Assembly (NCBI GenBank): GCA_038061795.1
Contig: JBBTYL010000003.1
Span: 192,041 to 256,040 of the forward strand
DNA: 64,000 bases
DNA from: Patescibacteria group bacterium
GTDB taxonomy: Bacteria; Patescibacteriota; Minisyncoccia; Phycocordibacterales; PALSA-1337
Reading direction: 5' to 3'
Shown: positions 14,663 to 47,671 of the stretch, piece after piece
How the letters are laid out: the number at the start of each line of letters is the position of its first letter
Numbering within the stretch: position 1 is the stretch's first letter
Translations under genes and position numbers: made by a program
Notes under the pieces: model-generated
The model's database searches: none
Seen by the model: only the letters and a program-made list of their open reading frames with translations
What the model was told of the DNA's origin: nothing

Positions 14663-14846
14663 ATAGAGCTTTTATATGCCCTATTTTAGCATGGTTTGCG
14701 AGATTTGTTGACAAAGGTTATTTGGTTTTGCTATTATAAGCAATGAAAAGGTATGTATTTCGAATTGTTACCGGACGGTGGCTTGGCTGAATTTATTCAG
14801 TCTAGAATACATATCGGGAAAAGTCTCCTTCGGGAGATTTTTCTTT

Positions 14847-27776: not shown

Positions 27777-28775
27777 TTAAGGCGAAGGTGATGAAGGGAT
27801 CAGCCCCACGATCTTGTTTTTTAATTTTTGAGCATTTCCATGATTCATCATACCTATATACGACTGCAAAGTTGTTGACGAGGGGCTCTTCTTTATAGTC
27901 CTTATCATTCTTTTCTTTGTTGCTGTTCGCAAAACCCTATGATCAGAAAAGTGCACCCAGCCCAGGAAATCCACTCCAGAAGAAAATGTCTTGATAAAGA
28001 CCTTATTAGGGTGAAGATCTAGAGCTAATTTTGATTTTAGAAAAAGATTAATTTTTGGAAGCAAATCGAGAAGATAGTTTTTATCCTCACTCATTATCAC
28101 GAAATCATCAGCATATCGAATGTAATGTTTTGCTTTCAGCACATGCTTTACATATTGATCAAATTCATTCATGTACACGTTTACAAGAAGCTGAGAGGTT
28201 AGGTTTCCTAGGGGCAATCCTTTCCCTTGTCCTGTACTTTGGAAACTTTCAACTATATTCTGAATAAGCCCTACAATAGAGACATCAGAAATATGTCTTT
28301 TAACAATAATCATGAGTATAGAGTGATCAATTGAGGCAAAAAACTTTTTAATATCGCATTTCAATACCCAGCAGGTTCGGTGGTTGTTCCGTGACACTTT
28401 ATAATAAAAATCAGTGAACCGATCAAGCGCCTTGTGGGTTCCTTTGAGATATCTACAGGAGTAGGAATCATAAATGAATTTAGTATCGAAATACGGATAC
28501 AAGACCCTATAAATAGCATGATGTAATAATCTGTCCTGAACCGTAGCCTTATGAATACTTCTGGGCTTGGGGTCACTGATAGAAAACGCTCGATACTCTC
28601 CATGGCAATATGTTTGGTTTTTTAATTCTTCATGAAGCCTAAAAATGTTACGTGAGAGATGTAGTGCGAAATCTGCCACGTCTTTTTTATATTTCTTACC
28701 ACAAACAAACTCCATCCATGCAGCATAGAGATTTTCCAAAGATATGATATGGTTGTAATCCATTATTATTTTCAT
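27777..28775 (-). CDS. DGR reverse transcriptase
   Basis: Has RT motifs including IRYADDFVIM (YADD) and the DGR-specific LPLGNLTSQ (I/LGxxxSQ). The track ORF extends to 28883, but that part is antisense to avd. The likely start is MKIIMDYNH at 28775, preceded by AGGTG. Confidence 0.9.
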   Translation of the reverse strand: MKIIMDYNHIISLENLYAAWMEFVCGKKYKKDVADFALHLSRNIFRLHEELKNQTYCHGEYRAFSISDPKPRSIHKATVQDRLLHHAIYRVLYPYFDTKFIYDSYSCRYLKGTHKALDRFTDFYYKVSRNNHRTCWVLKCDIKKFFASIDHSILMIIVKRHISDVSIVGLIQNIVESFQSTGQGKGLPLGNLTSQLLVNVYMNEFDQYVKHVLKAKHYIRYADDFVIMSEDKNYLLDLLPKINLFLKSKLALDLHPNKVFIKTFSSGVDFLGWVHFSDHRVLRTATKKRMIRTIKKSPSSTTLQSYIGMMNHGNAQKLKNKIVGLIPSSPSP

Positions 28776-28797
28776 TTCATTCAAACACCTATGATGA

Positions 28798-28808
28798 CCC
28801 CCCCCCCC
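28798..28808. repeat. C11/G11 homopolymer tract
   Basis: Eleven consecutive C residues on the + strand, directly after ATGATGA at 28791-28797. Confidence 0.95.
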
Positions 28809-28894
28809 GCACGGTTCCAGGCGTAATTTTAAAGGAAAAAGAAGCATATCAGTTCTGGTTAGTACTTCATAGGAATTTTCCACGGGTTGAAAGG

Positions 28895-29176
28895 TTGGGT
28901 CTCGGTCAAAAGATTGAGACTGTTTTTCTGGATATTTTAGAGTTAAGTTTTTCGTGCGTATATCTTCCCCTTGAGCCCAAAATACTCTTGTTAGGAAAAG
29001 TCATTTCAAGGCTGGATACGCTCAAGTTCTTCACACAGCTGGCATGGGAAGGAAAACTGATACCAAACGAGAAATACGTCGAGCTTTCTAAGAAGCTGGA
29101 GGAGATCGGAAAAATGCTTGGAGGATGGAGAAAAGGATTACAAAATCCGGCAAACAAAACTCTCACCTTGAAGTAG
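28895..29176 (+). CDS. Avd-like four-helix-bundle accessory protein (N-terminally disrupted as sequenced)
   Basis: ...LDTLKFFTQLAWEGKLIPNEKYVELSKKLEEIGKMLGGWRKGL resembles bAvd and the 23S-IVS four-helix-bundle family. The frame is open upstream to 28748 (..RTVPGVILKEKEAYQFWLVLHRNFPRVER..), but the only ATGs (28791/28794) are out of frame by one across the C11 tract. Confidence 0.65.
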   Translation: MGLGQKIETVFLDILELSFSCVYLPLEPKILLLGKVISRLDTLKFFTQLAWEGKLIPNEKYVELSKKLEEIGKMLGGWRKGLQNPANKTLTLK

Positions 29177-29198
29177 TGAGAGAAATAACGAGTTTCGA

Positions 29199-29315
29199 GA
29201 GCCACCACACGATGGCGGTTGTCGGCATTCCAGACGTTGTCGTTCGAGAATCGGTTGACGTTGGCGTTAAGCGTGCCGTCATCGTTGACGTTCACGTTAG
29301 CAACGAAGAACTCGT
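29199..29315 (-). repeat. DGR template repeat (TR)
   Basis: 117 bp. In minus sense it encodes ..FFVANVNVNDDGTLNANVNRFSNDNVWNADNRHRVV.. with nine AAC codons and one AAT codon. Confidence 0.9.
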
Positions 29316-29533
29316 ACAGCAAGCCATCCTGCACACCATCGCCCAAATCATGAACGATTGAAACTTATGTGGGACGTAGAAGTCCGCAAGCTTGCTGCAC
29401 CAACTAGCATTTTTTTATTTGAAAAGATAGACCCACTCTTCCGCAAGACGTATCCAGCAGAATTCTCAAGTGTATCCTTACACAACCATTGCGCTTGAGC
29501 CGTAGCCGAAGCGCACCGATGTATTGCCTTTTC

Positions 29534-29562
29534 ATTATACAAAAATCCCCCTGATTTGCCAA
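29534..29562 (-). promoter_or_regulatory. sigma70-like promoter between VR and TR (candidate TR-RNA/RT promoter)
   Basis: Minus-sense TTGGCA, 17 nt spacer, TATAAT. Confidence 0.4.
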
Positions 29563-29615
29563 AATAAATTTTGACAAGGGTCAGAGGGACTGAGAGCCAA
29601 AGTAGGCTCGGGGGA

Positions 29616-30305
29616 CTAATTTTTGAGTGCCAGTTGCGGAGCCACCACACGACGGCGGCTGCCGGCACGCCAGACGAGGCCGTTCGAGAATCGGCGGACG
29701 TGGGCGCCAAGCGTGCCGTCATCGCGGACGAACACGCGAGCAACGAAGAACTCGTCGCCAACCTTGAAGAGGAAGAACGTGGCGTAACCTTCCGTGCGAA
29801 GCCACTTCTTGTGCTTCTGCACGAACTGGATGATCTGGGCCTGCGTGAGGCACAGCTCGTCCAAGTTCTCGCTCAGGCCTCCGAAGATCTTGGCAAACGT
29901 GCCATCCTTGACCATCTCGTGGACATGGACGTTTTGCGCAGTCGTCGGATCAGCCTTGACGTTGCAACCCCAGTTCTGGAAATCGCTATCAATGCCCCAT
30001 GTGAAGACTTCCTTAGCCTTCGCAATGGTCCGCTTGCCGTCCGTGGGTTCAAGCTCAAGGGTTTCAGCCCCAGAGATGAGCTTCAGACAGCCAGCGATGT
30101 TTTCGGCGAGTTCAGCGAACAGAGCTTTGACGAATTCCTTGATTCGGGGAGCCACTTGACGTGACCCAACCAAACGTTGGATGTTCTCGCTGTTGAGAAC
30201 GCCATTCGCTTCCAGTTCGTTGACCGCTTCTTCACTCCCTTTGCGTGCCGCGTCTTTGGCAACAGTGACGCACTGTTCTTTCTGACCAGATGTAATCGGT
30301 TTCAT
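29616..30305 (-). CDS. DGR variable (target) protein
   Basis: 229 aa. The VR forms the last ~40 codons (..FFVARVFVRDDGTLGAHVRRFSNGLVWRAGSRRRVV..). No signal peptide or TM segment is visible. GC-rich. Confidence 0.85.
   Translation of the reverse strand: MKPITSGQKEQCVTVAKDAARKGSEEAVNELEANGVLNSENIQRLVGSRQVAPRIKEFVKALFAELAENIAGCLKLISGAETLELEPTDGKRTIAKAKEVFTWGIDSDFQNWGCNVKADPTTAQNVHVHEMVKDGTFAKIFGGLSENLDELCLTQAQIIQFVQKHKKWLRTEGYATFFLFKVGDEFFVARVFVRDDGTLGAHVRRFSNGLVWRAGSRRRVVAPQLALKN
29639..29755 (-). repeat. DGR variable repeat (VR)
   Basis: 117 bp aligned to the TR at offset 440. There are 19 mismatches, all at TR adenines in coding sense. Confidence 0.9.
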
Positions 30306-30453
30306 ACCGTTATCATCCTTTCTCCCTTTCGGGTTTGGTTTATTAATTTGCTGGACTCTTCGCCACAGCGGAGAAAGCCCTATGAATAAGGCATTTTCTG
30401 CTATGGCGAATATTCAAAAATAAGTTGGAAATGTACTTACTTATACTGATACT

Positions 30454-30482
30454 ATTATACACCTTTTATAGGTATATGTCAA
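30454..30482 (-). promoter_or_regulatory. consensus sigma70-type promoter upstream of the DGR target gene
   Basis: Minus-sense TTGACA, 17 nt spacer, TATAAT, about 150 nt upstream of the ATG at 30305. Confidence 0.55.
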
Positions 30483-30511
30483 TATTAGCCAAAGGAGCTT
30501 ATCGGGGACTT

Positions 30512-31177
30512 TTATATGGTTTCTTGATCGTGTATAACAAAGTTGATTTTCGTCTCTCCTCCATCATAAACAGTGTCATCAAGTGAATATTTAACCAAAG
30601 GTGCCATACCACGAGCTGAGTACTCCAAAGTCTTGAATAGGTAACCTAGAAATGTACCCGTGTATTTATATAATCTTATACATCCTCGCATTCTTTCTTC
30701 CAGCTCGTCTGTGTATCCTTTCCATCTATATATCTGCCACCTGCGGTCGATCCATTCGTCCACGATAAATTTAAGCCATTTAATAAGTTCTTGTTGTGCC
30801 AAGATATTCCCTTTTTGACTGATACGGACTAGGGCGACAATGATTTTTTCTTGATCGCGCTCTTCTTTAGGATTATTTGGAACGAGTAGAGTATATAACT
30901 TGCTCCTGTGTTTCAGAAGAATCAAATCTACTTCTTCTTGATTCTCATATTCCTTAAGAGACCTTCGTCTGTTACTAGTCCATCTTTTTTGGAATTTTCG
31001 ATCAAGCCTGAGAGTTACCCTGTCCCAGTTCACATCATTGTTTTCTGTCCTGATATATTTCCAAATGTAGCGATAGGCGGATGGAGCTTCCATTTGGACC
31101 CACCTGCTGCCAAATGTCGTTGGTTGTTTTTCTTTGAGGGATTTTTTAAGGATTTTGATGGCTTCTTTTAAATTCAT
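30512..31177 (-). CDS. hypothetical protein with a sigma-70 region-2-like segment
   Basis: 221 aa. LAQQELIKWLKFIVDEWIDR...YTDELEERMRGCIRLYKYTGTFLGYLFKTLEYSAR is loosely similar to sigma region 2. This is a weak call. Confidence 0.3.
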   Translation of the reverse strand: MNLKEAIKILKKSLKEKQPTTFGSRWVQMEAPSAYRYIWKYIRTENNDVNWDRVTLRLDRKFQKRWTSNRRRSLKEYENQEEVDLILLKHRSKLYTLLVPNNPKEERDQEKIIVALVRISQKGNILAQQELIKWLKFIVDEWIDRRWQIYRWKGYTDELEERMRGCIRLYKYTGTFLGYLFKTLEYSARGMAPLVKYSLDDTVYDGGETKINFVIHDQETI

Positions 31178-31190
31178 AACTCCCTACATT

Positions 31191-31565
31191 TTAACCTTTC
31201 TTTTTATTTGGGAAAATCTTTGAAGAGAAATAGACCAGAACAGCGACGGCTGCAATAGACATTACAATTCCTAATATTTTTTGTTGAAGATTATCAGAAT
31301 ATGCAAATGATAAAACTAGTTGGAAAAGTGCTACTAGCAACTGCACAACGGAAAGCAGAAAAAGAGCTATAGTAAATTTTTTCTCAACCTCTGACGACTT
31401 TTCGACTTGAAGGGTCTGTTTATCAATTGACTCATTAAGACGCCTTATACTACGTCTTGTTAGTTCATCTGAAGCAAGATGTACTACTCTATAATCTAAT
31501 TGGTTAACCCATGATAACAGTTCTTTTTCGGTGGCGTCTTCAACGTTTTTTGAGAATTTTTTCAT
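31191..31565 (-). CDS. small protein with two C-terminal TM helices
   Basis: 124 aa. The hydrophobic segments are FTIALFLLSVVQLLVALFQLVL and ILGIVMSIAAVAVLVYF. Confidence 0.55.
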   Translation of the reverse strand: MKKFSKNVEDATEKELLSWVNQLDYRVVHLASDELTRRSIRRLNESIDKQTLQVEKSSEVEKKFTIALFLLSVVQLLVALFQLVLSFAYSDNLQQKILGIVMSIAAVAVLVYFSSKIFPNKKKG

Positions 31566-31569
31566 TGTT

Positions 31570-33063
31570 TTAAGATTTCACTACTTTTAATTTACTTGGT
31601 GAAGGTTTTACCAAACCATCCACAATCACAAGTTCTGGGCATTTTTTGTTCGCCTTCTTATTTTCCTCACAAAGTTTAGTGATGATATCAAGTTGAGAGT
31701 AACTATCATTCTTTTTGGGTTGTTTCTTAACTAAAATAACTACAAAAAAACTATACTGTGCATTTTCACTCTTTTCATATGCTTCAAGCTGTTTTTTATA
31801 CCCGCTCTCCAAATTTTTATTATTAGATTTCTTTATTTCTACCAAAACCTTCTCTTGATACCCTGTACCTAATGAGAAGTCAACAGGGCCTCTGCCAGCA
31901 TCTGATTCGCCAGATAAAAGAATGTTTGCTTGTCGACAAAATAGATCCGCAATCATATAAAATATTTTTTGAGAAACATCTTCGTGATGCGGTTCTTTTT
32001 TCAAGATCTTTCCTGTCTTTGTTCTGTGATACAAGAGATTACTACCTCCATTATCTTCTATCGTCCTTTTAAACTGAGTGGTAAGATCTCTGATTGAATT
32101 AATTAGTTCGCTAGCATTTTTAGGCTTATTATGAGCTTTAATTTTGGAAGATTGTTTTTCAATGAACGGGTCAATCTTATAATATCCTTTCTCATCAATA
32201 TTGAGGTCATAAGATTTGACTTCTACTTTTCTATAGACATCAAGTAATGCTGACATATCTTTTTTAAATGCCTCCTTCTCTTTCTGACTACCTTGAGATA
32301 TGTCTTTCATAATTTTTTCCAGTGCTGGCTGTACAATGTCTTCGAGTTGCTTTCTTAATGATTCGTTACGTGCGGCGGCATTTGCTATTTGATCCCAAGA
32401 TGCCGCGACCGGTAGAACACTTAATAGAGAGTACGGGATAAAAATTATCTGCTCGTTAGTAAACGGATGGGTAGGAAGAAAATATTTACTTCCCTCAATT
32501 GTATATTGCCTAGTTTTTACTCCCAGCTTCAATGAAACTCTTTCTGTATACTTACAGAGGTCGGAGTAAATAATACTAATAATTAGATCACTTATACTGT
32601 CTGGACCAAATTTAGGAACAAACAAACTAAGAAGTTCCACAACTTCTGCGTCTTCAATTCCAACAGAAAAAATTTCACTTACTGAAAGTAAAATTTTATT
32701 TGCCACAGGTTTTGGAACTGACGTACCATTATCACTTTTACTTCCATAACCAATTGAAACACCTTCTGGCTCAGGTACTGCTAACATATCTCTTGCTTGA
32801 TTTCTTAAACGAGGAGATTTGTGAGACTGCTTATGTATTCTTAGAAGAGTAGTAAAATAGTCAAGTATTCTTTTTCTTGAATCTCTAAGTTCTGGAATAT
32901 CTGAACTGACCAATAATTTAGGATCAACAAAAAGTTTGGTGTCCAACCCCAAGGTGGCATCAAAAACACCTACCTTCTCTAAAACTTTTCTTGCTACTCC
33001 TAGATGCTTACTTAAAGGAATTATTTTCATAAATTCCCTTATTATATGTTTACCTTCATCCAA
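31570..33063 (-). CDS. hypothetical protein with a C-terminal PD-(D/E)xK nuclease-like motif
   Basis: 497 aa. ..HHEDV..GRGPVDFSLG..KVLVEIKKS.. fits the E...D...ExK pattern. Confidence 0.45.
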   Translation of the reverse strand: MDEGKHIIREFMKIIPLSKHLGVARKVLEKVGVFDATLGLDTKLFVDPKLLVSSDIPELRDSRKRILDYFTTLLRIHKQSHKSPRLRNQARDMLAVPEPEGVSIGYGSKSDNGTSVPKPVANKILLSVSEIFSVGIEDAEVVELLSLFVPKFGPDSISDLIISIIYSDLCKYTERVSLKLGVKTRQYTIEGSKYFLPTHPFTNEQIIFIPYSLLSVLPVAASWDQIANAAARNESLRKQLEDIVQPALEKIMKDISQGSQKEKEAFKKDMSALLDVYRKVEVKSYDLNIDEKGYYKIDPFIEKQSSKIKAHNKPKNASELINSIRDLTTQFKRTIEDNGGSNLLYHRTKTGKILKKEPHHEDVSQKIFYMIADLFCRQANILLSGESDAGRGPVDFSLGTGYQEKVLVEIKKSNNKNLESGYKKQLEAYEKSENAQYSFFVVILVKKQPKKNDSYSQLDIITKLCEENKKANKKCPELVIVDGLVKPSPSKLKVVKS

Positions 33064-33320
33064 TCTGTGACTTCTTTAGTGACTCCTACTGTTGCCCAAT
33101 CATCATCTGTAATATTCACAACAAGTATTCCATCATTTAAATCTGTTTGAGCTTTGATGTAATCACAGACGTCAGAAGCAGATTTAGTTGTCGTGACAAA
33201 CCATACTGATTTGAGTGGTGTTGCCCAGCCCCCAAGTGCTTTTATTGCGTTAATCAATTTTTTATAATCCTCTGATGTTTCTGGAACCCTAAGGTCATAG
33301 GAAATAAGATGCGTGCTCAT
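33042..33320 (-). CDS. small alpha/beta protein (Cas2/VapD-like beta-alpha-beta pattern by eye)
   Basis: 92 aa, containing HLISYDLRV..YKKLINAIKALG..SVWFVTT..DGILVVNIT. Assigned from topology resemblance only. Confidence 0.4.
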   Translation of the reverse strand: MSTHLISYDLRVPETSEDYKKLINAIKALGGWATPLKSVWFVTTTKSASDVCDYIKAQTDLNDGILVVNITDDDWATVGVTKEVTDWMKVNI

Positions 33321-33321
33321 A

Positions 33322-33459
33322 TTATTTTCGTTTGTTAGGTCGTTGTGTCAGTGCCGACGCTGCTAATGTCTTTACGTCTTTTTTTGTTATCGGAAGTCCT
33401 CGCAATGCTCGAGATGCTATGGTGGCGACCTTTCTAGATGTTCTTTCGTTTTTACTCAT
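33322..33459 (-). CDS. 45-aa basic small ORF
   Basis: Hand translation gives MSKNERTSRKVATIASRALRGLPITKKDVKTLAASALTQRPNKRK. Its TAA stop lies 1 nt before the next ATG and its start lies 9 nt after the lexA stop. Below the ORF-track cutoff. Confidence 0.35.
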   Translation of the reverse strand: MSKNERTSRKVATIASRALRGLPITKKDVKTLAASALTQRPNKRK

Positions 33460-33468
33460 AATTTTATT

Positions 33469-34086
33469 TTAATGCAGATCTTCTGGAAGCACCGCAACAA
33501 CTACCCCTTGGATCATACAATTATCTGTTAATATAATAGGCCTGTGGCTTTTATTTGTTGATTTTGGTCTAAGAATAATAGCATCACGAGTCTTTTCAAA
33601 ACTCTTCACTGTTGCCTCATCGTTGATGAGAGCAACTACGTTGTCTCCATTTTCTGCTGTATCTTGCTGTCTTATAAGAAGTAAATCGCCACTATTGATT
33701 CCGACTTCATTCATCGAATCACCTGATGCTCTAAGTAGGAAATATTTTGATCCTTTTTGAGCCATTCTTGTGGAAATAGGAATGTAGGTCTCTATGTTTT
33801 CCTTTGCAAAAATCGGTGTACCACATGCAACCTGTCCGACAAGAGGCACATTTATAGTACTTACTGAATTTGCGCTATAAGTATTTGCTAGGATAAGTTT
33901 TCTACCTTTCCTTTTTATAAGACCGGATGCAACAAGTCGTTCTACCACCAGACTTGCAGATCTTGGAGATCTTCCTCCCGTCACCACGTTTATCTCACGC
34001 AGAGAAGGGCTTTCACCATAATGGATAATCTTGTTGCGGATAAGGGCAAAAGCTTTTTTGTCTTTGTCACTAAGGTTATTTGTCAT
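33469..34086 (-). CDS. lexA: LexA-family repressor (winged-helix domain plus S24 peptidase)
   Basis: VPLVGQVACGTPIFAKENIE is the cleavage-site region, and ASGDSMNEVGINSGDLLLI...VKSF contains the Ser/Lys dyad region. The likely start is 34086; the track ORF runs to 34116. Confidence 0.85.
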   Translation of the reverse strand: MTNNLSDKDKKAFALIRNKIIHYGESPSLREINVVTGGRSPRSASLVVERLVASGLIKRKGRKLILANTYSANSVSTINVPLVGQVACGTPIFAKENIETYIPISTRMAQKGSKYFLLRASGDSMNEVGINSGDLLLIRQQDTAENGDNVVALINDEATVKSFEKTRDAIILRPKSTNKSHRPIILTDNCMIQGVVVAVLPEDLH

Positions 34087-34144
34087 GGTATAAGAAGTAT
34101 ACAAAACTCTATACAAAAATGCAAGTGTTTGATATTATTGCCTT

Positions 34145-34513
34145 ATGAGAAAAGAATTAATTTACCTGACTGACATAACTCTGCATATGCGAGGTTTTCG
34201 TCAAACCTTGAATTTTGCCAAAGTAGCACAGAAAGGCAGAATGTACTCACCTCTCTCGAGAGATTATGTAAAAAATATTAAGATTGCAGATAGTGGGAAT
34301 GATCACCAAAAATTCGCATTTCAAATTGACTTACCGAAAGATTTAAGGGAGAAGATAGAGAAAGGTGAAGCCGAGCTTATGATACCTGAGGGTGGTCTTT
34401 TGATCTTCCCAGGTAAGGACGTTGTAGAGTATTTAAAGTCAGAGGAAAAAAAGAAGTGGCGAGAGCTTATCCACAAAAACCGAAACCATACTTGGCATGT
34501 GGATAAGAAATAG
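34145..34513 (+). CDS. hypothetical protein
   Basis: 122 aa. Divergent from lexA, with no recognisable motifs. Confidence 0.4.
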   Translation: MRKELIYLTDITLHMRGFRQTLNFAKVAQKGRMYSPLSRDYVKNIKIADSGNDHQKFAFQIDLPKDLREKIEKGEAELMIPEGGLLIFPGKDVVEYLKSEEKKKWRELIHKNRNHTWHVDKK

Positions 34514-34569
34514 AGTATAATATAGGTACAATTAAATATTACTTGTGGTGCCTCACACATCCGTGTCAC

Positions 34570-34640
34570 GCCCACTTCGTAGGAAAGCCTAAAAGAATCA
34601 CTTGTTGATTCTTTAAGTCTTCTTCGCGAAGTGGGCTTTC
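34570..34640 (+). terminator. nested double-stem hairpin followed by a T-rich run
   Basis: The outer 10-bp stem pairs GCCCACTTCG (34570-79) with CGAAGTGGGC (34626-35). The inner stem is AAGAATCA/TGATTCTT. It is followed by TTTCTCGTTTATTT. Confidence 0.45.
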
Positions 34641-34673
34641 TCGTTTATTTATTAGTAATTATCACTTAATAAT

Positions 34674-35954
34674 ATGGAAAATATAAAATTAGTTTGGCAC
34701 TCCGAGCGTCGCCAAGTAAGTACGCTCAAGGCGTGGAATCGAAATCCTCGCAAGATAACAACCCAGAAGTTCAATCAGCTTATTGAACGCATTAAAAGTC
34801 GCGGCTTCCACGATGTCATCAAGATCGACACTGACGGTACAGTACTTTCAGGCAACCAGCGCAAGAAAGCTTTGCTGAAGCTCAGCATCAAGGAAGTGAA
34901 TGTTCTCGTCCCTAATCGCAAGCTCACCGAAGAAGAGCGCGACCGCGTGGGAATCGAGAGCAACACCAATGACGGCGAATGGGATTATGAAGGCTTGAAG
35001 TCATTTGATCTCGACACCCTCACCGATGTCGGCTTCGACACAAATAATCTCTCGGAGATGTGGAGCGAGAACCTCTCGGCTGAAGATGACGAATTCAATC
35101 CTGACGAGGAAATTGAGAAAATTAAAGATCCAAAAACCAAGCTTGGTGATCTCATCCTCATGGGTAACCATAAGTTGATTTGCGGCGATTCTACCAACCC
35201 TACAATATTAAAAAGGCTTTTCGGCAATGATCGTGCCTCGATGATATACAGTGACCCTGTATTCAACATCAACTACTCATACAAATCTGGACTTGGTGGC
35301 AAGAAGAACTATGGTGCAACCGTCAACGACACCCGAACTGACCAAGAGTATGCTGAATTCCTACGAAAAAGCCTTAAATGCGCTTTGTCTGTAACTAAAC
35401 CTGATGCCCATGTTTTCTACTGGTCTGATCAATGTTACATCTGGCTCATACAGACCCTGTATCGTGAGCTTGGTATCGAAAACAAGCGTGTGTGCCTGTG
35501 GATCAAGAACGGCTTTAGTCCAACGCCCGCCGTTGCATTCAACAAGTGCTTTGAACCCTCTACTTATGGCATTCTTGGTCACCCCTATCTCAATGATAGT
35601 GTCCAAAACCTCAATGAGGTATCAAACGGCAATCTGACCACAGGCAACGACATGCTCGATCAGATTTCCGACATATGGGCGGTGAAGCGATTGTCGGCAA
35701 AGGATTATGAGCATGCGACATCCAAGCCCCCGAAGCTCCACGAGAAAGCGATTCGTCGCTGTACCCGCCCAGGTGACATTATCTTGGACAGCTTTTCGGG
35801 ATCGGCAAGTACCATGATTGCAGCCGAGCAATTGAAGCGCAGGGTTTATGCAATCGAACTTGAACCACGCTTCTGTGATCTTGCGATCAAGAGGTACGAG
35901 AAGCTCACCGGAAAAAAAGCAAAAGTAATCCGCAAATACCATGAAGAAAAATAA
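34674..35954 (+). CDS. ParB-like nuclease domain fused to an N6-adenine/N4-cytosine DNA methyltransferase
   Basis: 426 aa. N-terminal ParB/Srx-like region (..NPRKIT..GNQRKKAL..), then the catalytic motif IYSDPVFN (a DPPY variant), and the C-terminal SAM motif ILDSFSGSAST. Confidence 0.85.
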   Translation: MENIKLVWHSERRQVSTLKAWNRNPRKITTQKFNQLIERIKSRGFHDVIKIDTDGTVLSGNQRKKALLKLSIKEVNVLVPNRKLTEEERDRVGIESNTNDGEWDYEGLKSFDLDTLTDVGFDTNNLSEMWSENLSAEDDEFNPDEEIEKIKDPKTKLGDLILMGNHKLICGDSTNPTILKRLFGNDRASMIYSDPVFNINYSYKSGLGGKKNYGATVNDTRTDQEYAEFLRKSLKCALSVTKPDAHVFYWSDQCYIWLIQTLYRELGIENKRVCLWIKNGFSPTPAVAFNKCFEPSTYGILGHPYLNDSVQNLNEVSNGNLTTGNDMLDQISDIWAVKRLSAKDYEHATSKPPKLHEKAIRRCTRPGDIILDSFSGSASTMIAAEQLKRRVYAIELEPRFCDLAIKRYEKLTGKKAKVIRKYHEEK

Positions 35955-36360
35955 AGTAAAAGATAATTTCCTCGCAGAGTTGAGGAAGATACCGATCGTT
36001 CAGGTAGCCTGCGAAAGGATCGGTGTTTCAAGGAATAGTGTCTATCGTTGGAAAAATACCGATGAGATATTTTCTGATGAAATGGACAGAGCGCTTGCAG
36101 AGGGAGAAGCATTGGTAAATGACCTCACTGAAAACCAGCTTCTCACCCTCATCAAGGAAAAAGAGTGGTCTGCTATATCGTTCTGGCTTCGTCATCGTAA
36201 TCCGAAGTTTAGGGAACGTGTGGAAATCACAACTAAGACAGAAAGTGACGGCAAGCTAACAGCTGAACAAGAATCAATCGTACGGGAAGCACTGCGTCTT
36301 TCTGCGGTCGCACCTGTTCAAACTATCACTGATAACAAACAAGACGATGAACCAAAATAA
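35941..36360 (+). CDS. terminase small subunit-like HTH protein
   Basis: 139 aa. The HTH is VACERIGVSRNSVYRWK. The gene overlaps terL by 14 nt. Confidence 0.5.
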   Translation: MKKNKVKDNFLAELRKIPIVQVACERIGVSRNSVYRWKNTDEIFSDEMDRALAEGEALVNDLTENQLLTLIKEKEWSAISFWLRHRNPKFRERVEITTKTESDGKLTAEQESIVREALRLSAVAPVQTITDNKQDDEPK

Positions 36361-37843
36361 AGAAATAGCACAAGAGCTGGTTGAAGCCATGATTAAGGAT
36401 CAAAAGGTTCGTATAGCAATCACCAAGAAAAGTCATTGGTATTTTTTCCATTTCTATTTTGCAAAGTACGTCAAACATGCAACGGCAGAGTTTCAAAGGG
36501 AAATTATTCGACTTACCGAGAACGAAGATATCAAAAATTTCTTCATTGTTGCATTTAGAGGATCGGGAAAATCTACTATCATCACGACTTCATATGTCCT
36601 CTGGGCGATTCTTGGTGAACAGCAGAAAAAATTTATCCTCATTCTAGGTCAGACAAGAAATCAGACAAAGCAATACATGATGAACATCAAGCGAGAGCTT
36701 GAAACGAATGATATCCTTAAAAGAGACCTCGGCCCGTTTCAGGAAGAAAGCGATGAATGGGGTGCAACCTCTATCGTATTTTCACAACATAATGCACGAA
36801 TAACTGTAGCATCCACAGAACAAGGTATTCGTGGTCTGCGACACAATGAACATCGCCCCGACCTTATTATTGGAGACGATATTGAAGACCTCAATTCAAC
36901 AAAGACAAAGGAAAGTCGACAGAAAACCTATGAATGGCTTACTGGCGAAGTAATTCCTGCTGGAGATCAGAATACTCGCCTGATCATCATCGGAAACCTT
37001 CTTCATGAAGATTCTCTTCTTATGAAAATTAGGGGGAAGCTCGATAAAAAAGAAATGAAAGGGGTGTTTAAATTCATACCACTGCTTGATTCCGAGGGTA
37101 AAAGCATGTGGCCAGGAAAATACCCGACCCCCGAATCAATCGAGGATGAAAAGCAGAAGACAGGAAGCGAACAATCGTGGCAAAGAGAATACCTTCTCAG
37201 GATTATTCCAACAGAGGTACAAGTAATTCATAAGGAATGGATCCAATACTACGATATGTTACCACCGCGAGGTGCTGAAAACTACGAGTATACATGGGCA
37301 GGGGTTGATCTTGCAATATCAGAAAAAACTACAGCAGACTGTACCGCGATTGTTGGAGCGCAGGTACATGGCAGACGTAAAAAAAGAAAGATATACATTC
37401 TTCCAAATTCCATAAATCAAAGAATGCTCTTTCCAGACATTGTTCGCTTGTGTAAAGACTATATCAAAAATGTGCTTCATAACGGCAAACTGATAATCGA
37501 AAGTGTTGCGTTTCAAGCTTCCTTGGCACAGCTACTTCATAGCGAAGGTCATTATGTTGAGGGAATGCCTGTTCATGGAGATAAACGATCAAGACTTGCC
37601 ATGACCTCATCACTCATACAAAACGGGTTCATCCTTTTTCCAAAACAAGGAGCTGAACAGCTTATCCAACAGCTTGTTGGGTTCGGAGTTGAAAAACACG
37701 ATGATCTAGTTGATGCATTTACACTACTTATTCATAAGCTTATGGAGGAAGACAATCAACCAAGGCCGAATATCGGATGGTTTGATATGCGAACAGGCAG
37801 ATTTGATTGGGCGATAGACTACGATGATGATGAATTCGTGTAA
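36347..37843 (+). CDS. phage terminase large subunit
   Basis: 498 aa. Walker A is AFRGSGKST and Walker B is DLIIGDDIED. The C-terminal RNaseH-like nuclease region contains AGVDLAIS...D...HDDLVDA. Confidence 0.85.
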   Translation: MNQNKEIAQELVEAMIKDQKVRIAITKKSHWYFFHFYFAKYVKHATAEFQREIIRLTENEDIKNFFIVAFRGSGKSTIITTSYVLWAILGEQQKKFILILGQTRNQTKQYMMNIKRELETNDILKRDLGPFQEESDEWGATSIVFSQHNARITVASTEQGIRGLRHNEHRPDLIIGDDIEDLNSTKTKESRQKTYEWLTGEVIPAGDQNTRLIIIGNLLHEDSLLMKIRGKLDKKEMKGVFKFIPLLDSEGKSMWPGKYPTPESIEDEKQKTGSEQSWQREYLLRIIPTEVQVIHKEWIQYYDMLPPRGAENYEYTWAGVDLAISEKTTADCTAIVGAQVHGRRKKRKIYILPNSINQRMLFPDIVRLCKDYIKNVLHNGKLIIESVAFQASLAQLLHSEGHYVEGMPVHGDKRSRLAMTSSLIQNGFILFPKQGAEQLIQQLVGFGVEKHDDLVDAFTLLIHKLMEEDNQPRPNIGWFDMRTGRFDWAIDYDDDEFV

Positions 37844-39380: not shown

Positions 39381-39560
39381 TTTATTGCTTGATAGGTCTT
39401 AATAAATCCGAAACGGGTAACAGAAATCCCGCCGCGGGTAGAGACCGAAATCTCTCATACCAGTTTCCCGATATGGCCTATCAAGCGACCCCACGACGGG
39501 GTTTCTGAACTTGATAGGACTTCTTTCACCATGCCCCGTAAGGGGTTTAGGCTACTTCTC
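39381..39560 (-). promoter_or_regulatory. structured 5' leader with mutually exclusive 9-nt pairings
   Basis: cttgatagg occurs at 39389-97 and 39510-18, and its complement cctatcaag occurs at 39477-85. Three local GC hairpins are also present (CCCGC/GCGGG, ACCCC/GGGGT, CCCC/GGGG). Confidence 0.3.
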
Positions 39561-43670: not shown

Positions 43671-44987
43671 ATGCAAACACAAATGAATGCCCAAGTTGGT
43701 ACCCCTGCCATACTAGCCCCAGTCAAAATGAAGTACTGCCTATATGCCAGAAAAAGTACCGAATCAGAAGAACGACAAATTCTTTCTATTGATTCTCAGG
43801 TCAAAGAGATGCTCCAACTGGCAGAACGAGAAAATATTGAAATCATAGATATCAGGCGTGAATCACATTCAGCCAAGGATTCGGGACAACGTCCTGTATT
43901 CAAAGAACTGCTTGAAGATATACGACGAGACAGATTTAACGGAATATTAACATGGGCACCTGATCGCCTATCCAGAAATGCAGGTGACCTCGGTTCATTA
44001 GTGGACCTTATGGATCAAAAGCTACTTCTTGAAATTCGTACGTACGGTCAGCATTTCAAGAACTCGCCGAATGAAAAATTTCTACTCATGATCCTTTGTA
44101 GCCAAGCAAAGCTCGAGAATGACAACAAGGGTATCAATGTCAAACGTGGACAAAGGACAAGGTGTGAAATGGGATTGAGACCAGGAGTAGCTCCTACTGG
44201 TTACCTGAATGAAAAACGAAGCGATCGTAAATGTCATGCCAGCATAGACCCCACACGAGCACCAGTTATTAAGAAAATGTTTGAAAAAGTTGCCTATGAA
44301 AAATATAGTGGAAAGAAAATATATATGTGGCTCAAGTTTGATCTAAATTTTAGAACTGCTAACGGAAAGAAGCATTTAAGTCTCGGCAATATCTTCCGTA
44401 TCCTCTACAACCCTTTCTATTACGGCACATTTGAGTATCCAAAAGAAAGTGGTAATTGGTATCAAGGCAAACATGAACCAATAATCACCAAAGAATTATT
44501 TGATCAGGCACATGCGCAGCTCAAAAGTAACATAATGCGCACCGAAAATCAGGAATTCGCTTTTACTAAACTCATGATATGCGGTATATGTCAGTCAGGT
44601 ATATCAGCTTGTGAGAAATGGAAGAATCAGAAAAACGGCAATGTCCATCGATATGTATACTATGGATGCACTAAGAGTAAAGATAAAAACTGTAAGTGTG
44701 GCTACATTGAAGAAAAAGAGCTTATTATCCAGTTTGCAGACCTCATCGACAAGATCGATCTCGATGAGATTGGCATGAAAGAGAAAATCAAGACTGAGGT
44801 TGAGCGATTCAAGAAGTTTCAGAAAAATCTACTCGGCATCAAGGAAAAAGTTGAGGTTGGTGATATCGACATACGGAATTATGCTAAATACATTCTGAAA
44901 GACGGGAATGATCTTGAAAAGAGAGAGTTATTAAGATGTTTGAAGAATAAGATAGTACTAAAGAATAAATTGATTTCTTTAGATTAA
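43671..44987 (+). CDS. large serine recombinase
   Basis: 438 aa. Resolvase catalytic domain (YARKSTESEERQ..SIDSQ...DRLSRN), a recombinase domain, and a Cys-rich zinc ribbon (CGICQS...YYGC). Confidence 0.85.
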   Translation: MQTQMNAQVGTPAILAPVKMKYCLYARKSTESEERQILSIDSQVKEMLQLAERENIEIIDIRRESHSAKDSGQRPVFKELLEDIRRDRFNGILTWAPDRLSRNAGDLGSLVDLMDQKLLLEIRTYGQHFKNSPNEKFLLMILCSQAKLENDNKGINVKRGQRTRCEMGLRPGVAPTGYLNEKRSDRKCHASIDPTRAPVIKKMFEKVAYEKYSGKKIYMWLKFDLNFRTANGKKHLSLGNIFRILYNPFYYGTFEYPKESGNWYQGKHEPIITKELFDQAHAQLKSNIMRTENQEFAFTKLMICGICQSGISACEKWKNQKNGNVHRYVYYGCTKSKDKNCKCGYIEEKELIIQFADLIDKIDLDEIGMKEKIKTEVERFKKFQKNLLGIKEKVEVGDIDIRNYAKYILKDGNDLEKRELLRCLKNKIVLKNKLISLD

Positions 44988-44995
44988 AAAAATAA

Positions 44996-45187
44996 TTATA
45001 CTCGCCCTAATTCATACTCTACTCTGGCAATAATCTGACCTGCTCGTGTTCCGCCAACACCAAATTTCTGACCAGTTTCTCTGAGTGTATGTTTGGTGCC
45101 ATCAGTGATACCATTTCTATACTCAAAAAATACTAAATATCTTTCACTTAGTTTAAGTAAATGTTTCTTTTCTTGGTATTGCTTCAT
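44996..45187 (-). CDS. small HTH protein, sigma-70 region-4-like
   Basis: 63 aa. TLRETGQKFGVGGTRAGQIIARVEYEL resembles a sigma r4 HTH. Overlaps the upstream recombinase by 4 nt. Confidence 0.4.
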   Translation of the reverse strand: MKQYQEKKHLLKLSERYLVFFEYRNGITDGTKHTLRETGQKFGVGGTRAGQIIARVEYELGRV

Positions 45188-46539
45188 ACTTTTAATTTAT
45201 TAATAAATGGCATAATACTCTGATAGACATCTTCTGGTTTAATTACGTATTCATTGTAGGCCTGATCTAATTCTGAAAAAAGATAGAAGTTGCATTGATT
45301 GAAAGAACTAGTCGGTAATAAAAATAAATTATCAATCGGATCTTTTTTATCAAGAGTAATACTTACAGCAAAAACCTTATCAAAGTTTCTTGTCTCTTCA
45401 TCAATAGCGAATAGGGTGTATTTTTTCAATGGATCTCCTTCATAAGAATTTACACAATAAGCAAGTGGAATCTTCTTAATTTTTGTTTCAGCTTGATCGT
45501 CACTAAACCCTTCCTTAAGGAGCAATTCTTTGACTTCTTTCTCAATGAATTTTTGTGCCTTGCGAACCATCGTCACGCCTTTCTTCCATCTAGAAGGCAT
45601 ACTCCAGAAAAGTCTCTTCTGTGCTTTCCAGTAATCATCTGTGCTAACTATAGATTGAAATGCCTCTGGAGCAACAACCCACTCGTTTCGAGGATTTTTG
45701 ACTTTTCTTTGTTTTAATTTACCTGAAGTTTTATTATAAACTCTAGTACCTGTATAGACTTCATTACTTAATATTCGGTTAATGCTTCCCGTGTTCCATT
45801 TTTTGCCATTTGCTGAAGGTACACCTTTTTCGTTTAAAGTCTCGGCGATATCTTCTGATGTTTTCCATTTATTAATAAATAAATCAAATATCTCTTTAAC
45901 GATACTGGTTGTTTCGTCATTTAGGGGTGTAAATGTAACGCGCTGATTGGAAATTAATTTATGCTGACCTTTTTTTAAAATACTAACCGGTTTTCTATTT
46001 TCATCAAGCAGTAATCTAGCCATGCCATATGGAGCTGTTCCTCCAGCAGAAAATCCATCCCTAGATATCTTCATCGAACCATGCCAGACTTTTTCACTTA
46101 GAACTCTAGAGTACTCCGCTGCCATAAAGCGATCAATTGAATCAATTAGACTTGTTGTGAGCTGCTGACCTTCTTGAGGGAAACCACGAAACACATTTAC
46201 CAGTGTCTTACCGTGTTTTTTGCACATAAAGGCATAATGAGCACCCTCGTTCTGATCTTGGAAACGACCCCAGCGAGAAATATCGAAGAATAGAACGTAA
46301 TCAAATTTTGGTGCATCCAAGTTATATACCCAGTCATTGAATAATCTTTTAAATCCGGGTCTATTTGCAATCAATCCACTTACACCCTCATCGGATTCCT
46401 CGTGAATGATTTCTATATTATGTTTAGCTGCAAACTTTTCTGCGTGTTCACGTTGAATCTGTACCGAGTTTTCTTGCTTATCTTCAGCTGAGTGACGATA
46501 GTACGCAACAGCTTTTTTTGATGACTGTAGGAATTTCAT
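45184..46539 (-). CDS. large serine recombinase
   Basis: 451 aa. The N-terminal resolvase domain contains AVAYYRHSAEDKQENSVQIQ...DISRWGRF, followed by a recombinase domain. Confidence 0.85.
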   Translation of the reverse strand: MKFLQSSKKAVAYYRHSAEDKQENSVQIQREHAEKFAAKHNIEIIHEESDEGVSGLIANRPGFKRLFNDWVYNLDAPKFDYVLFFDISRWGRFQDQNEGAHYAFMCKKHGKTLVNVFRGFPQEGQQLTTSLIDSIDRFMAAEYSRVLSEKVWHGSMKISRDGFSAGGTAPYGMARLLLDENRKPVSILKKGQHKLISNQRVTFTPLNDETTSIVKEIFDLFINKWKTSEDIAETLNEKGVPSANGKKWNTGSINRILSNEVYTGTRVYNKTSGKLKQRKVKNPRNEWVVAPEAFQSIVSTDDYWKAQKRLFWSMPSRWKKGVTMVRKAQKFIEKEVKELLLKEGFSDDQAETKIKKIPLAYCVNSYEGDPLKKYTLFAIDEETRNFDKVFAVSITLDKKDPIDNLFLLPTSSFNQCNFYLFSELDQAYNEYVIKPEDVYQSIMPFINKLKV

Positions 46540-46542
46540 AGA

Positions 46543-47400
46543 TTAGAGTATCTTTTTAAGCTCTACTACTAATCCCTTTTCTTTATCATCAAATGGAATT
46601 CCATTTTTTCTTTTCTTTTTTATTTCCTCAATAAGTTGAAGTACGTGTAAAGAAAAACCTGATTGAATAGTATCTCGATCGAGTTCTGCTACTGTTGCAT
46701 CAGAATCAGAAAGAAATTTATAAATTTCTGCTTCATTAGCAGAAGCACGTGCAAATATTTTTTGTATCTTACGAAAATCTTTGGCGTTCTTAATAATTCG
46801 GTGCTTAACTTTTTCAAAAAGTATTTTGATGATGTCGGGCGTCTCAAAACTTTTTATCTTTCTTAATTTTGGCCATAATCTTACAAACTCCATACGATAT
46901 ACCTCTTTGAGATCGTATTTAACCATAAGCTCAAGATAATCCAATTTTTGTTCTCGAAGTTGAAGAGAGGAAGCAATCGTTGATCTTGATATGTTAATAA
47001 GCTTTGAAAGCTCTTCATTGCTCTTGAGACCCAACATTGTTTTTGCTCTATAGAGCGAGTTTGACTTTTCCATCGGCTTCCAGCCCTTACGATTGTTTTG
47101 CTTCTCATATCGACGAATTTCAAGCTCACCATCATCAAGATCAGGGTATATCTGGCACATAGCCTTCTCAACACCTAGTTCTTTTAAGCAAAGGTAACGA
47201 CGATGACCATCAATGATAAGGTAACGATTATCATCTTTCTGTGTAACCATAATTGGCTCTTGTAAGCCAAATTGCATTAGTGAACTCTTAAGTTTCTCTT
47301 GTTCAGAGGGGCTACCATATTCTTTTCTAGGTTGATTACTATCAAGCTCAATCTGGGAAATAGGCAATTCTTTGAATGCTGTTATATGTTTTCCTATCAT
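46543..47400 (-). CDS. ParB/Srx-fold N-terminal domain protein
   Basis: 285 aa. Contains SNQPRKEY...LQEPIMV...YLIIDGHRRYLCLKELG. Confidence 0.8.
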   Translation of the reverse strand: MIGKHITAFKELPISQIELDSNQPRKEYGSPSEQEKLKSSLMQFGLQEPIMVTQKDDNRYLIIDGHRRYLCLKELGVEKAMCQIYPDLDDGELEIRRYEKQNNRKGWKPMEKSNSLYRAKTMLGLKSNEELSKLINISRSTIASSLQLREQKLDYLELMVKYDLKEVYRMEFVRLWPKLRKIKSFETPDIIKILFEKVKHRIIKNAKDFRKIQKIFARASANEAEIYKFLSDSDATVAELDRDTIQSGFSLHVLQLIEEIKKKRKNGIPFDDKEKGLVVELKKIL

Positions 47401-47580
47401 AAAGGTATGTATTATGTATTAATAATTACGAGCCAGAATTGCCTGGAATAGCCAAAAATTACCCGTTCTGAACGAAATTATCATAGGACAATAAAAAAGT
47501 AAAGACGTCAGCCCCTTTATATATTATTCTTATGTATCTCGAGCGCTCGACTGCCTCTTGACACTCGAGCTAACTCGTGT

Positions 47581-47671
47581 TGGCGGAAACGGAGGGATTC
47601 GAACCCTCGGAGCCTTTAAAGGGCTCACATCTTTAGCAAAGATGCTCGTTAGACCACTCCGACACGTTTCC
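47581..47671 (-). tRNA. tRNA-Ser (anticodon GCU), CCA encoded
   Basis: The hand-folded cloverleaf has acceptor GGAAACG/CGTTTCC, anticodon stem CATCT/AGATG with loop TTGCTAA, a long variable arm GAGCC..GGCTC, and T-arm GAGGG-TTCGAAT-CCCTC, ending in GCCA. Confidence 0.9.

Follow-up and report, generated by a model that had tools for sequence, protein, structure and literature searches.

Introduction

In phage lambda the exclusion genes rexA and rexB lie behind cI, the gene for an S24-type repressor, and in the lysogen they are co-transcribed with it on a leaderless, autoregulated transcript that issues from a compact divergent control region. A second design is found in the cyclic oligonucleotide-based antiphage signalling systems (CBASS) regulated by CapH/CapP and in hotspot 5 of the SXT integrative and conjugative element, which SetR controls: here defence is placed under a damage-responsive regulator that is inactivated by proteolysis. 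Finally, P2 prophages, P4 satellites and phage-inducible chromosomal islands (PICIs) reportedly carry defence hotspots (Rousset et al. 2022; Fillol-Salom et al. 2022). To our knowledge, almost nothing is known of immunity in the Patescibacteria. The subject of this article is a cluster of six minus-strand genes headed by lexA, found in a stretch of 64,000 nucleotides (nt) from contig JBBTYL010000003.1 of a Patescibacteria group bacterium (assembly GCA_038061795.1, a metagenome-assembled genome from Hainich groundwater), which is referred to throughout as the window. Behind lexA come the genes for a basic protein of 45 amino acids (aa), a 92-aa protein, a nuclease, a 124-aa protein with two transmembrane (TM) helices and a 221-aa protein. 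On balance, the cassette formed by the first four of these is best explained as an SOS-coupled defence cargo, assembled from separate modules and held in a swap-in slot behind lexA.

What does this locus share with the known designs, and where does it depart from them? The likeness to lambda cI-rexAB lies in defence genes that would ride on the transcript of a repressor (co-transcription being a prediction here), in a repressor mRNA that is predicted to be leaderless and autoregulated from a compact divergent region, and in the presence of a membrane protein in the cargo, as in lambda. The regulator, however, is of the LexA family (TIGR00498) and not a cI, the cargo is unrelated to RexAB and is swappable, the host is a Patescibacterium, and no complete phage is recognisable. 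With the hotspots of P2, P4 and the PICIs the locus has in common a conserved mobile backbone with one fixed position for variable anti-phage systems, and the P2 Z-region record itself holds a homologue of the 92-aa protein. Here, in contrast, the slot directly adjoins the 3' end of lexA, across a junction of 3-9 nt, and the backbone is a different one, composed of a serine recombinase, the large and small terminase genes terL and terS, and a ParB-like methylase. With so short a junction, the cargo seems to belong to the transcription unit of the repressor. The likeness to CapH/CapP-regulated CBASS and to SetR-SXT is a proteolysis-sensitive damage switch, predicted in the present case, with the difference that the regulator would be LexA, acting through RecA-stimulated self-cleavage, and is the first gene of the operon. 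New against these designs are a bona fide LexA at the head of the operon, the 3-9 nt junction, the different backbone and the Patescibacterium host.

A cargo slot behind lexA

A search with LexA returned 1748 homologues; among the best 120, identity is 72-100% and length about 205 aa. Contigs were looked up for homologues that are 72-86% identical. The comparison made here draws on ten related lexA loci (L092, L095, L108-L113, L117 and L118), whose LexA proteins are 72-99% identical to that of the window. At all ten, only 3-9 nt separate the TAA of lexA from the first cargo ATG, which stands in A/T-rich DNA that lacks a Shine-Dalgarno sequence, and the cargo that follows differs between lineages. 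In L108 it consists of a CBASS cyclase (6e-109) with a two-TM Cap15 effector (3e-58), in L109 of a 69-aa protein, a CD-NTase, Cap15 and DUF5677, and in L110 of a 69-aa protein, a one-TM CBASS effector (2e-58) and an SMODS/AGS-C cyclase (1e-183). The slot of L111 holds a 69-aa protein followed by PycC, PycTM, PycC, DUF2726 and SIR2, and that of L095 two ThsB-type TIR proteins with an 8xMP membrane protein. A metallo-beta-lactamase set that matches PDC-M48B is present in both L112 and L113, beside a Shedu gene in the latter. L117 carries DUF2188, a homologue of the 92-aa protein (58% identical), an Exo_endo_phos nuclease, HNH, AbiH and a UvrD-like helicase, and the genes of L118 are unannotated. 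The last of the ten, L092, has a near-identical copy of the set found in the window, namely the 45-aa basic protein, the 92-aa protein of Cas2/GhoS fold, the DUF8370/DUF8371 nuclease and the two-TM 124-aa protein.

Since relatives carry such varied defence systems at this point, the slot that holds the 45-aa, 92-aa, nuclease and two-TM genes is a defence hotspot, and it is the position behind lexA that makes the nuclease-centred cassette a good candidate for damage-switched defence genes. The defence reading rests on this position, on the nuclease, and on the company that the nuclease keeps elsewhere; SOS induction and anti-phage activity of this particular cassette are predictions. The initial annotation had proposed a damage- or phage-triggered defence module on a mobile island. 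A defence-type locus on a phage-derived element is indeed what is found, but the genes do not make up one system, as is set out below.

The gene that comes first in the slot is small at several loci. A 69-aa protein (MAKSVVVT...NPDGKEGNNLD) directly follows lexA in L109 (838-1047), L110 (6625-6834) and L111 (6624-6833), ahead of CBASS or Pycsar genes, DUF2188 takes this place in L117, and the 45-aa protein does so here. Such small first genes may be adaptors or regulators. Between the 69-aa protein of L109-L111 and the 45-aa protein no convincing relationship was found.

Organisation of the gene cluster

All six open reading frames (ORFs) of the cluster lie on the minus strand where they had been placed, and the public gene calls concur. 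The intergenic gaps are 9 nt between lexA and the 45-aa gene, 1 nt between the 45-aa and 92-aa genes, 11 nt between the 92-aa and nuclease genes, 4 nt between the nuclease and 124-aa genes, and 13 nt between the 124-aa and 221-aa genes. The gaps of 9, 1, 4 and 13 nt reproduce those reported earlier; a 22-nt overlap that had been reported for the 92-aa gene and a 497-aa nuclease is replaced by the gap of 11 nt, because the nuclease gene starts at ATG 33030 (486 aa), as it does in the public calls and in every homologue. A start at TTG 33063 gives the 497-aa version by adding 11 residues, and residues 1-10 of that version have a predicted local distance difference test score (pLDDT) of <50 and are disordered in the model. 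For lexA the start is most likely ATG 34086 (205 aa) and not TTG 34116, with both the start and the upstream DNA conserved across the ten related loci, and the codons that precede this ATG read as conserved promoter DNA and not as coding sequence.

A sequence scan of the cluster found no strong minus-strand promoter or terminator-like site inside it. The next transcription unit, beyond the 221-aa gene, is opened by a perfect sigma-70 promoter (TTGACA-17-TATAAT) at 30482-30454, which precedes the target gene of a retroelement described below. The genes of the cluster are tightly coupled, and they would be co-transcribed from lexA; the 221-aa gene may be transcribed with them.

LexA and its control region

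The assignment of the first gene to the LexA family is secure, with 149.5 bits against the TIGR00498 equivalog, well above the cutoff of 110.95, and with Pfam matches to both LexA_DNA_bind (PF01726, 25.1 bits against a cutoff of 23.7) and Peptidase_S24 (PF00717, E = 1e-29). Residues C88-G89, S124 (in GDSM) and K161 are invariant among 24 homologues, and we take them to be equivalent to the corresponding residues of E. coli LexA and UmuD. With its Cys-Gly site and Ser/Lys dyad intact, the protein looks competent for self-cleavage. A scan of IMG/VR with the LexA profile yielded one relevant contig only.

The putative lexA promoter has a -35 box, TTGCAT, at 34119-34124 and, after a spacer of 17 nt, a -10 box, TATACT, at 34096-34101, with the ATG exactly 9 nt past the latter. 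This layout (-35 CTTGC(A/T)T, 17-nt spacer, -10 TATACT, ATG 9 nt on) is common to 11 lexA promoters, and the close approach of the ATG to the -10 box suggests that the lexA mRNA is leaderless. Overlapping the -10 box is a dyad of 20 bp, TGTATA-N8-TATACT, at 34096-34115. In the form T(G/A)TATA-N8-TATACT the dyad, together with the -10 box, is invariant in 9-11 lexA promoters, and its 8-nt centre varies freely. The exact form (A/T)GTATA-N8-TATAC(T/A) occurs once in each of the 8 promoters that carry it, with no further copy in the 64-kb window or in the scanned loci L092-L121; in L109, L111 and L117 the left half is the variant ATATA.

Earlier, the operator had been sought in a pair of direct repeats. 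Both copies of TATACAAAA are real and have precisely the positions given for them (34098-34106 and 34110-34118), but only this genome and L092 have the second, whereas the inverted dyad is conserved. The candidate operator is better described as this dyad than as a direct repeat, and LexA would be expected to bind to it. The spacer between lexA and the divergent 122-aa gene measures 58 bp, and the dyad also overlaps a promoter-like site of that gene, whose ATG stands 6 nt past a TATTAT box. Across 34087-34147 both genes have a -10-like box 6-9 nt before the ATG and neither has a Shine-Dalgarno sequence. The arrangement suggests leaderless transcripts in both directions from a bidirectional control region of 58 bp.

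The nuclease and its neighbours

The nuclease is the likely effector of the cargo. Its family is DUF8370/DUF8371 (precomputed Pfam annotation, PF28123/PF28130), and it has a full-length match to phrog_30194 with E = 9e-81. A PD-(D/E)xK-like motif had been noticed in the 497-aa version, and homologues bear this out: D395, E409 and K411, along with E361, are invariant in 25 sequences. The check by structure prediction also favours a nuclease. The AlphaFold2 (AF2) model is confident (pLDDT 83; predicted TM-score 0.83) and has a C-terminal alpha-beta-beta-beta-alpha-beta core, with the motif residues mapping to H361-379, E396-399 and E405-412. Foldseek gave only local matches to this model, each covering about 100-150 residues with a probability of 0.8-1.0 and all with E >1e-3, and they are to members of the superfamily, including SfsA, CinB, Hjc, EndoMS, the HGTV-1 nuclease and viral PD-(D/E)xK/restriction enzymes. 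Motif and predicted fold together support a PD-(D/E)xK core in the modelled protein. The N-terminal domain of about 340 aa had no Foldseek match, nor was there a full-length match for the whole protein, and as modelled this domain is novel. A search of the PDB with the nuclease profile gave nothing meaningful, and tblastn of the nuclease against phage genomes gave no match.

Two proteins, one from a candidate and one from a named defence system, come close. Protein A of the PADLOC candidate system PDC-M36 matches the nuclease at residues 39-237 only (E = 7e-12), is matched by all 25 members of the family examined (best E = 4e-17) and has a similar overall length of about 460-490 aa. Complete PDC-M36 membership was rejected, as only the N-terminal half matches and no other PDC-M36 component occurs among the neighbouring genes; literature searches on DUF8370 and on PDC-M36 returned nothing. 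Shedu (SduA), likewise, joins a variable N-terminal domain and a C-terminal PD-(D/E)xK nuclease in one polypeptide, and is found in defence islands. Membership of Shedu was rejected too, with 18.3 bits against a cutoff of 27 for PF14082 (SduA_C/DUF4263) and an hhalign probability of 1% against the SduA_C protein of L113.

What company does the nuclease keep in other genomes? A scan that took one genome per species placed the family in 310 genomes, drawn from Patescibacteria, Proteobacteria, Acidobacteria, Bacteroidota, Clostridia and one archaeon, and 80 loci were fetched for analysis of their neighbourhoods. The commonest neighbouring families are Resolvase, Eco57I, Mrr, type I restriction-modification, S24, Zeta, PIN and RES, a set of the kind that makes up defence islands and mobile elements. 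At none of the 80 loci is a homologue of the 45-, 92-, 124- or 221-aa protein near the nuclease. Clustering of the neighbours by BLAST revealed no conserved partner, and a hydropathy scan revealed no recurrent small two-TM gene downstream: of 47 ORFs that follow the nuclease gene closely on the same strand, 8 have a TM segment, and none has the small two-helix layout of the 124-aa protein. The full six-gene order recurs in L092 only, in a block that is 96-100% identical in protein, and as a near-identical copy of the same element L092 is not an independent occurrence.

Because the 45-, 92-, 124- and 221-aa genes are absent from the vicinity of these 80 nuclease homologues, the six genes have not evolved together as one system, and the idea of a single system in the initial annotation fails on co-occurrence. 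What lexA heads is a stack of separable cargo genes, joined by a neighbouring 221-aa gene with its own history. The accompanying statement that the combination corresponds to no named system holds good, for Shedu, SLATT, Cas2-with-Cas1 and complete PDC-M36 each fail a defining test.

Two observations concern nuclease homologues elsewhere. In four genomes (L002 3595-5966; L012, L026 and L050) the homologue is accompanied by a MazG-like protein and then a protein of 673-810 aa, in which a Schlafen-type helicase (DUF2075) is joined to a GIY-YIG-like N-terminus and to an S24 peptidase domain at the C-terminus. Such a defence-type ATPase with a LexA-like self-cleaving domain may represent another damage-activated system. 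At L014 (6013-7474) the closest non-identical homologue (70%) is split into three ORFs, and is thus a pseudogene, between RHS/YD-repeat toxin genes.

The 45-aa and 92-aa proteins

The 45-aa basic protein matches phrog_5079 with E = 5e-8, is 100% conserved in L092, and has homologues that are about 50% identical in Caulobacter and Brevundimonas jumbo phages.

The 92-aa protein matches phrog_1090 (E = 2e-21) and belongs to a family of 1104 cluster representatives. Its AF2 model (pLDDT 89.5) has the beta-alpha-beta-beta-alpha-beta ferredoxin fold that is common to Cas2 and GhoS, and the top Foldseek matches are Cas2 proteins and GhoS, with probability 1.0 and TM-scores of 0.58-0.65; GhoS (2llz) ranks third, with a TM-score of 0.58. 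The Cas2-like pattern first seen in the sequence is thereby backed by model and structure search. A sequence search of the PDB gave nothing meaningful. Some phage homologues bear the label Cas2, the Asp that ends beta1 in Cas2 is not invariant in the family, and no Cas2 sequence model of Pfam, PADLOC or NCBIfam matches the protein. Among the operon neighbours there are no Cas matches, and the 64-kb window has no CRISPR-like repeats. Cas2-with-Cas1 membership was rejected: the fold fits, but the window has neither cas1 nor a CRISPR array.

Distribution links this family to repressors. Its members occur in temperate phages without the nuclease, as in Enterococcus phiFL1A (gp05) and Staphylococcus phiSP44-1, where they lie in the immunity region in the orientation expressed in lysogeny, and the homologue that stands behind lexA in L117 is also without the nuclease. 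The family tends to travel with S24 repressors and not with the nuclease. As regards the pair GhoS/GhoT, a gene for a GhoS-fold protein (92 aa) and one for a two-TM protein (124 aa) are present in one operon here, not adjacent, and no homologue of the 124-aa protein turned up in phage or IMG/VR collections.

The 124-aa and 221-aa proteins

The hydropathy scan of the 124-aa protein confirms the two C-terminal TM helices attributed to it, at residues of about 70-88 and 97-115; the N-terminal 60 or so aa are soluble. The protein may serve as a membrane effector. SLATT membership was rejected, since SLATT_5 gave E of about 0.009 and 15.5-15.8 bits against cutoffs of 29.5 and 60 (Pfam, NCBIfam); the match to RTasSLATT of PADLOC is likewise sub-threshold (E = 0.0087).

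The family of the 221-aa protein has 332 homologues of similar length that are 50-74% identical, and is conserved in Paceibacteria. Its contexts vary, from a housekeeping one in L093, through the vicinity of a PilM cluster and a recombinase in L094, to a place directly upstream of lexA in L117. The gene forms an evolutionary unit of its own, which accompanies the element in some cases, and does not belong to the cassette. A resemblance to sigma region 2 had been suggested for the protein and finds no support, by sequence or by profile, in Pfam, NCBIfam or the PDB; as a candidate sigma factor it was set aside when hhalign of residues 116-178 against region 2 of E. coli RpoE gave a probability of 0.15%. 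The body of the gene is only 64-70% identical in nt to its L092 counterpart (7001-7666), where both flanks reach at least 94% and the host background 78-80%. This divergence between conserved flanks suggests allele replacement or diversifying selection.

The mobile element

The cluster as a whole we read, with moderate confidence, as the repressor side of a small integrative element of Paceibacteria that derives from a phage. Packaging, integration and repression are all represented in it, by terS/terL, by integrase-type serine recombinases and by the S24 repressor. In relatives the backbone runs in the order recombinase, gene of about 150 aa, terL, terS, methylase, small gene and divergent lexA. 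It lies next to lexA in L092, L095, L108, L111, L112, L113 and L117, and partly so in L110 and L118, and a serine recombinase flanks terL in L110-L113, L117 and L118. In a megablast search the region matched no phage genome.

Comparison with L092 shows how nt identity changes along the element, from 65-72% in terL and 82-87% in terS to 90-100% from the methylase through the 124-aa gene. Past the 221-aa gene, in the spacer and the start of the retroelement target (30225-30624), it is 94-98%, in the diversity-generating retroelement as a whole 78-97%, and in the host genes Lnb and PilM 78-80%. Set against the values for terL and the host genes, the identity of 90-100% indicates that the block of methylase, lexA and cargo has been exchanged recently as a unit.

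The features are collected in Table 1. The two serine recombinases face each other beside tRNA-Ser (43671-47671), an arrangement that may mark the end of the element or two adjacent elements. A complete diversity-generating retroelement directly follows the 221-aa gene (27777-30482), and in the 117-nt core all differences between its template repeat (TR) and variable repeat (VR) are at TR adenines; a bAvd gene is present in L108 too, where terL has it on its other side. Within the element Rfam identifies a LOOT RNA at 39440-39553 on the minus strand (75.5 bits against a gathering threshold of 46.4), a short way upstream of a 280-aa gene of which the L118 element has a homologue. At 14750-14819 there is a DUF3800-IX RNA.

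Table 1 Coordinates of the features of the window that are discussed in the text.
Feature	Position	Strand	Basis or remark
lexA, 205 aa	33469..34086	-	TIGR00498; Pfam S24 and LexA_DNA_bind
Putative lexA promoter/operator	34096..34124	-	Sequence and conservation in relatives; predicted function
45-aa basic protein, first cargo gene	33322..33459	-	phrog_5079
92-aa Cas2/GhoS-like ferredoxin-fold protein	33042..33320	-	phrog_1090, AF2, Foldseek
486-aa DUF8370/DUF8371 PD-(D/E)xK nuclease	31570..33030	-	Pfam PF28123/PF28130, motif, AF2
124-aa protein, two C-terminal TM helices	31191..31565	-	Hydropathy scan
221-aa Paceibacteria-family protein	30512..31177	-	332 homologues
122-aa protein	34145-34513	+	Divergent backbone operon (34145..37843)
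ParB-like N6/N4 DNA methylase	34674-35954	+	Pfam N6_N4_Mtase
Small terminase, terS	35941-36360	+	PHROGs, NCBIfam
Large terminase, terL	36347-37843	+	PHROGs, NCBIfam
Large serine recombinase, probable integrase of the element	43671..44987	+	Pfam Resolvase, Recombinase, Zn_ribbon_recom
Second large serine recombinase	45184-46539	-	phrog_95 integrase
tRNA-Ser	47581-47671		
Retroelement target gene	29616-30305	-	VR 29639-29755
Retroelement TR	29199-29315		
Retroelement reverse transcriptase	27777-28883	-	
bAvd-like ORF	28895-29176	Opposite to reverse transcriptase	Below Pfam cutoff

A model for the cassette and its alternatives

How might such a cassette operate? LexA would bind TGTATA-N8-TATACT, a site that overlaps both the lexA -10 box and the promoter of the divergent gene, and would repress transcription in both directions, an occupancy that would keep expression of the cargo low and autoregulated. 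DNA damage or phage replication would activate RecA, upon which LexA would cleave itself at the Cys-Gly site, and the lexA-cargo transcript would then be derepressed along with the methylase/terminase operon. The nuclease would attack invading (or cellular) DNA, possibly with the two-TM membrane protein.

Three other explanations have been weighed. If LexA were a housekeeping copy in an ordinary chromosomal SOS operon, co-transcribed with genes for repair or damage tolerance, the nuclease would be a repair enzyme, and its fold matches do include the PD-(D/E)xK repair enzymes NucS/EndoMS and Hjc. In favour of this view, too, LexA itself scores above the equivalog cutoff and is highly conserved across Paceibacteria (72-100% identity). 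Yet close relatives have wholly different genes behind lexA, canonical CBASS and Pycsar included, the nuclease is patchy and lies beside restriction-modification, toxin-antitoxin and recombinase genes, and lexA is always linked with terminase, methylase and serine recombinase genes, all of which makes an SOS operon of this kind very unlikely. It is distinctly unlikely, too, that LexA and the 45-, 92-, 497-, 124- and 221-aa proteins are sensor, nuclease and membrane effector of one integrated multi-component system. The very tight spacing of 1-13 nt invites this view, as does the retention of the entire set in L092, and a nuclease with a two-TM protein recalls two-part abortive-infection systems; L092, however, is a near-identical block (96-100% in aa) and no independent case, the nuclease lacks these neighbours at all 80 homologous loci, its close downstream ORFs have a TM segment in just 8 of 47 cases and never the 124-aa layout, the 92-aa gene recurs without the nuclease, and the 221-aa gene has its own history.

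The cargo might instead serve the element, either as an addiction module resembling a toxin-antitoxin pair, with the 92-aa protein opposed to a two-TM toxin, or in satellite-like interference with a helper phage. GhoS is the antitoxin of a small membrane toxin in a type V toxin-antitoxin system, and the third rank of GhoS among the structural matches of the 92-aa protein, together with a two-TM protein encoded in the same operon, would suit the former; terS, terL and a recombinase in company with no recognisable capsid genes, and the 92-aa homologues in lysogeny modules and the P2 Z-region, would suit this explanation in general. We still judge it unlikely, given that the 92-aa and 124-aa genes are not adjacent, that the 124-aa protein has no similarity to GhoT, that the conserved Asp of Cas2/GhoS is not invariant in the 92-aa family, and that the slot elsewhere holds bona fide host-protective systems.

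An SOS-coupled defence cargo on a phage-derived element remains the preferred reading, and several points weigh against it. Among the neighbouring proteins of 223, 280, 463, 245 and 402 aa there is no capsid, portal or tail match, only an M23 peptidase, and the element may be a defective prophage, a satellite or a domesticated module. A role for the nuclease in DNA repair, or in the biology of the element itself, is conceivable, and LexA could be the sole copy of the host, which would make 'element repressor' a wrong description. PADLOC calls no system in the cassette, the 45-, 92- and 124-aa proteins have no assigned role, and searches of phages (by tblastn) and of IMG/VR gave no homologue of the 124-aa protein, which is confined to near-identical elements as far as these searches go. 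In addition, the ten lexA neighbourhoods sampled were picked for their long contigs.

Implications

The composite nature of the six-gene cluster matters to anyone who would clone it whole. The genes behind this lexA are position-based candidates for new anti-phage genes of Patescibacteria, and among them are the DUF8370/DUF8371 nuclease family, which spans many phyla and at least 310 genomes, and the 92-aa family of Cas2 fold, with >1000 clusters. A wider picture can be put forward only tentatively, and we would place it somewhat short of an even chance: small LexA-anchored elements, in which serine recombinase, terL, terS and ParB-like methylase face lexA, would be widespread in Paceibacteria, the 3' end of lexA would be a precise exchange point for immune cassettes, and CBASS, Pycsar, TIR and new effectors like the DUF8370/DUF8371 nuclease would be translationally coupled to LexA and switched on by the SOS response, under what is perhaps, in genomes so reduced, the only LexA of the cell. 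The locus also suggests a simple regulatory design, in which immune systems, CBASS and Pycsar included, would be wired straight to the self-cleavage of LexA.

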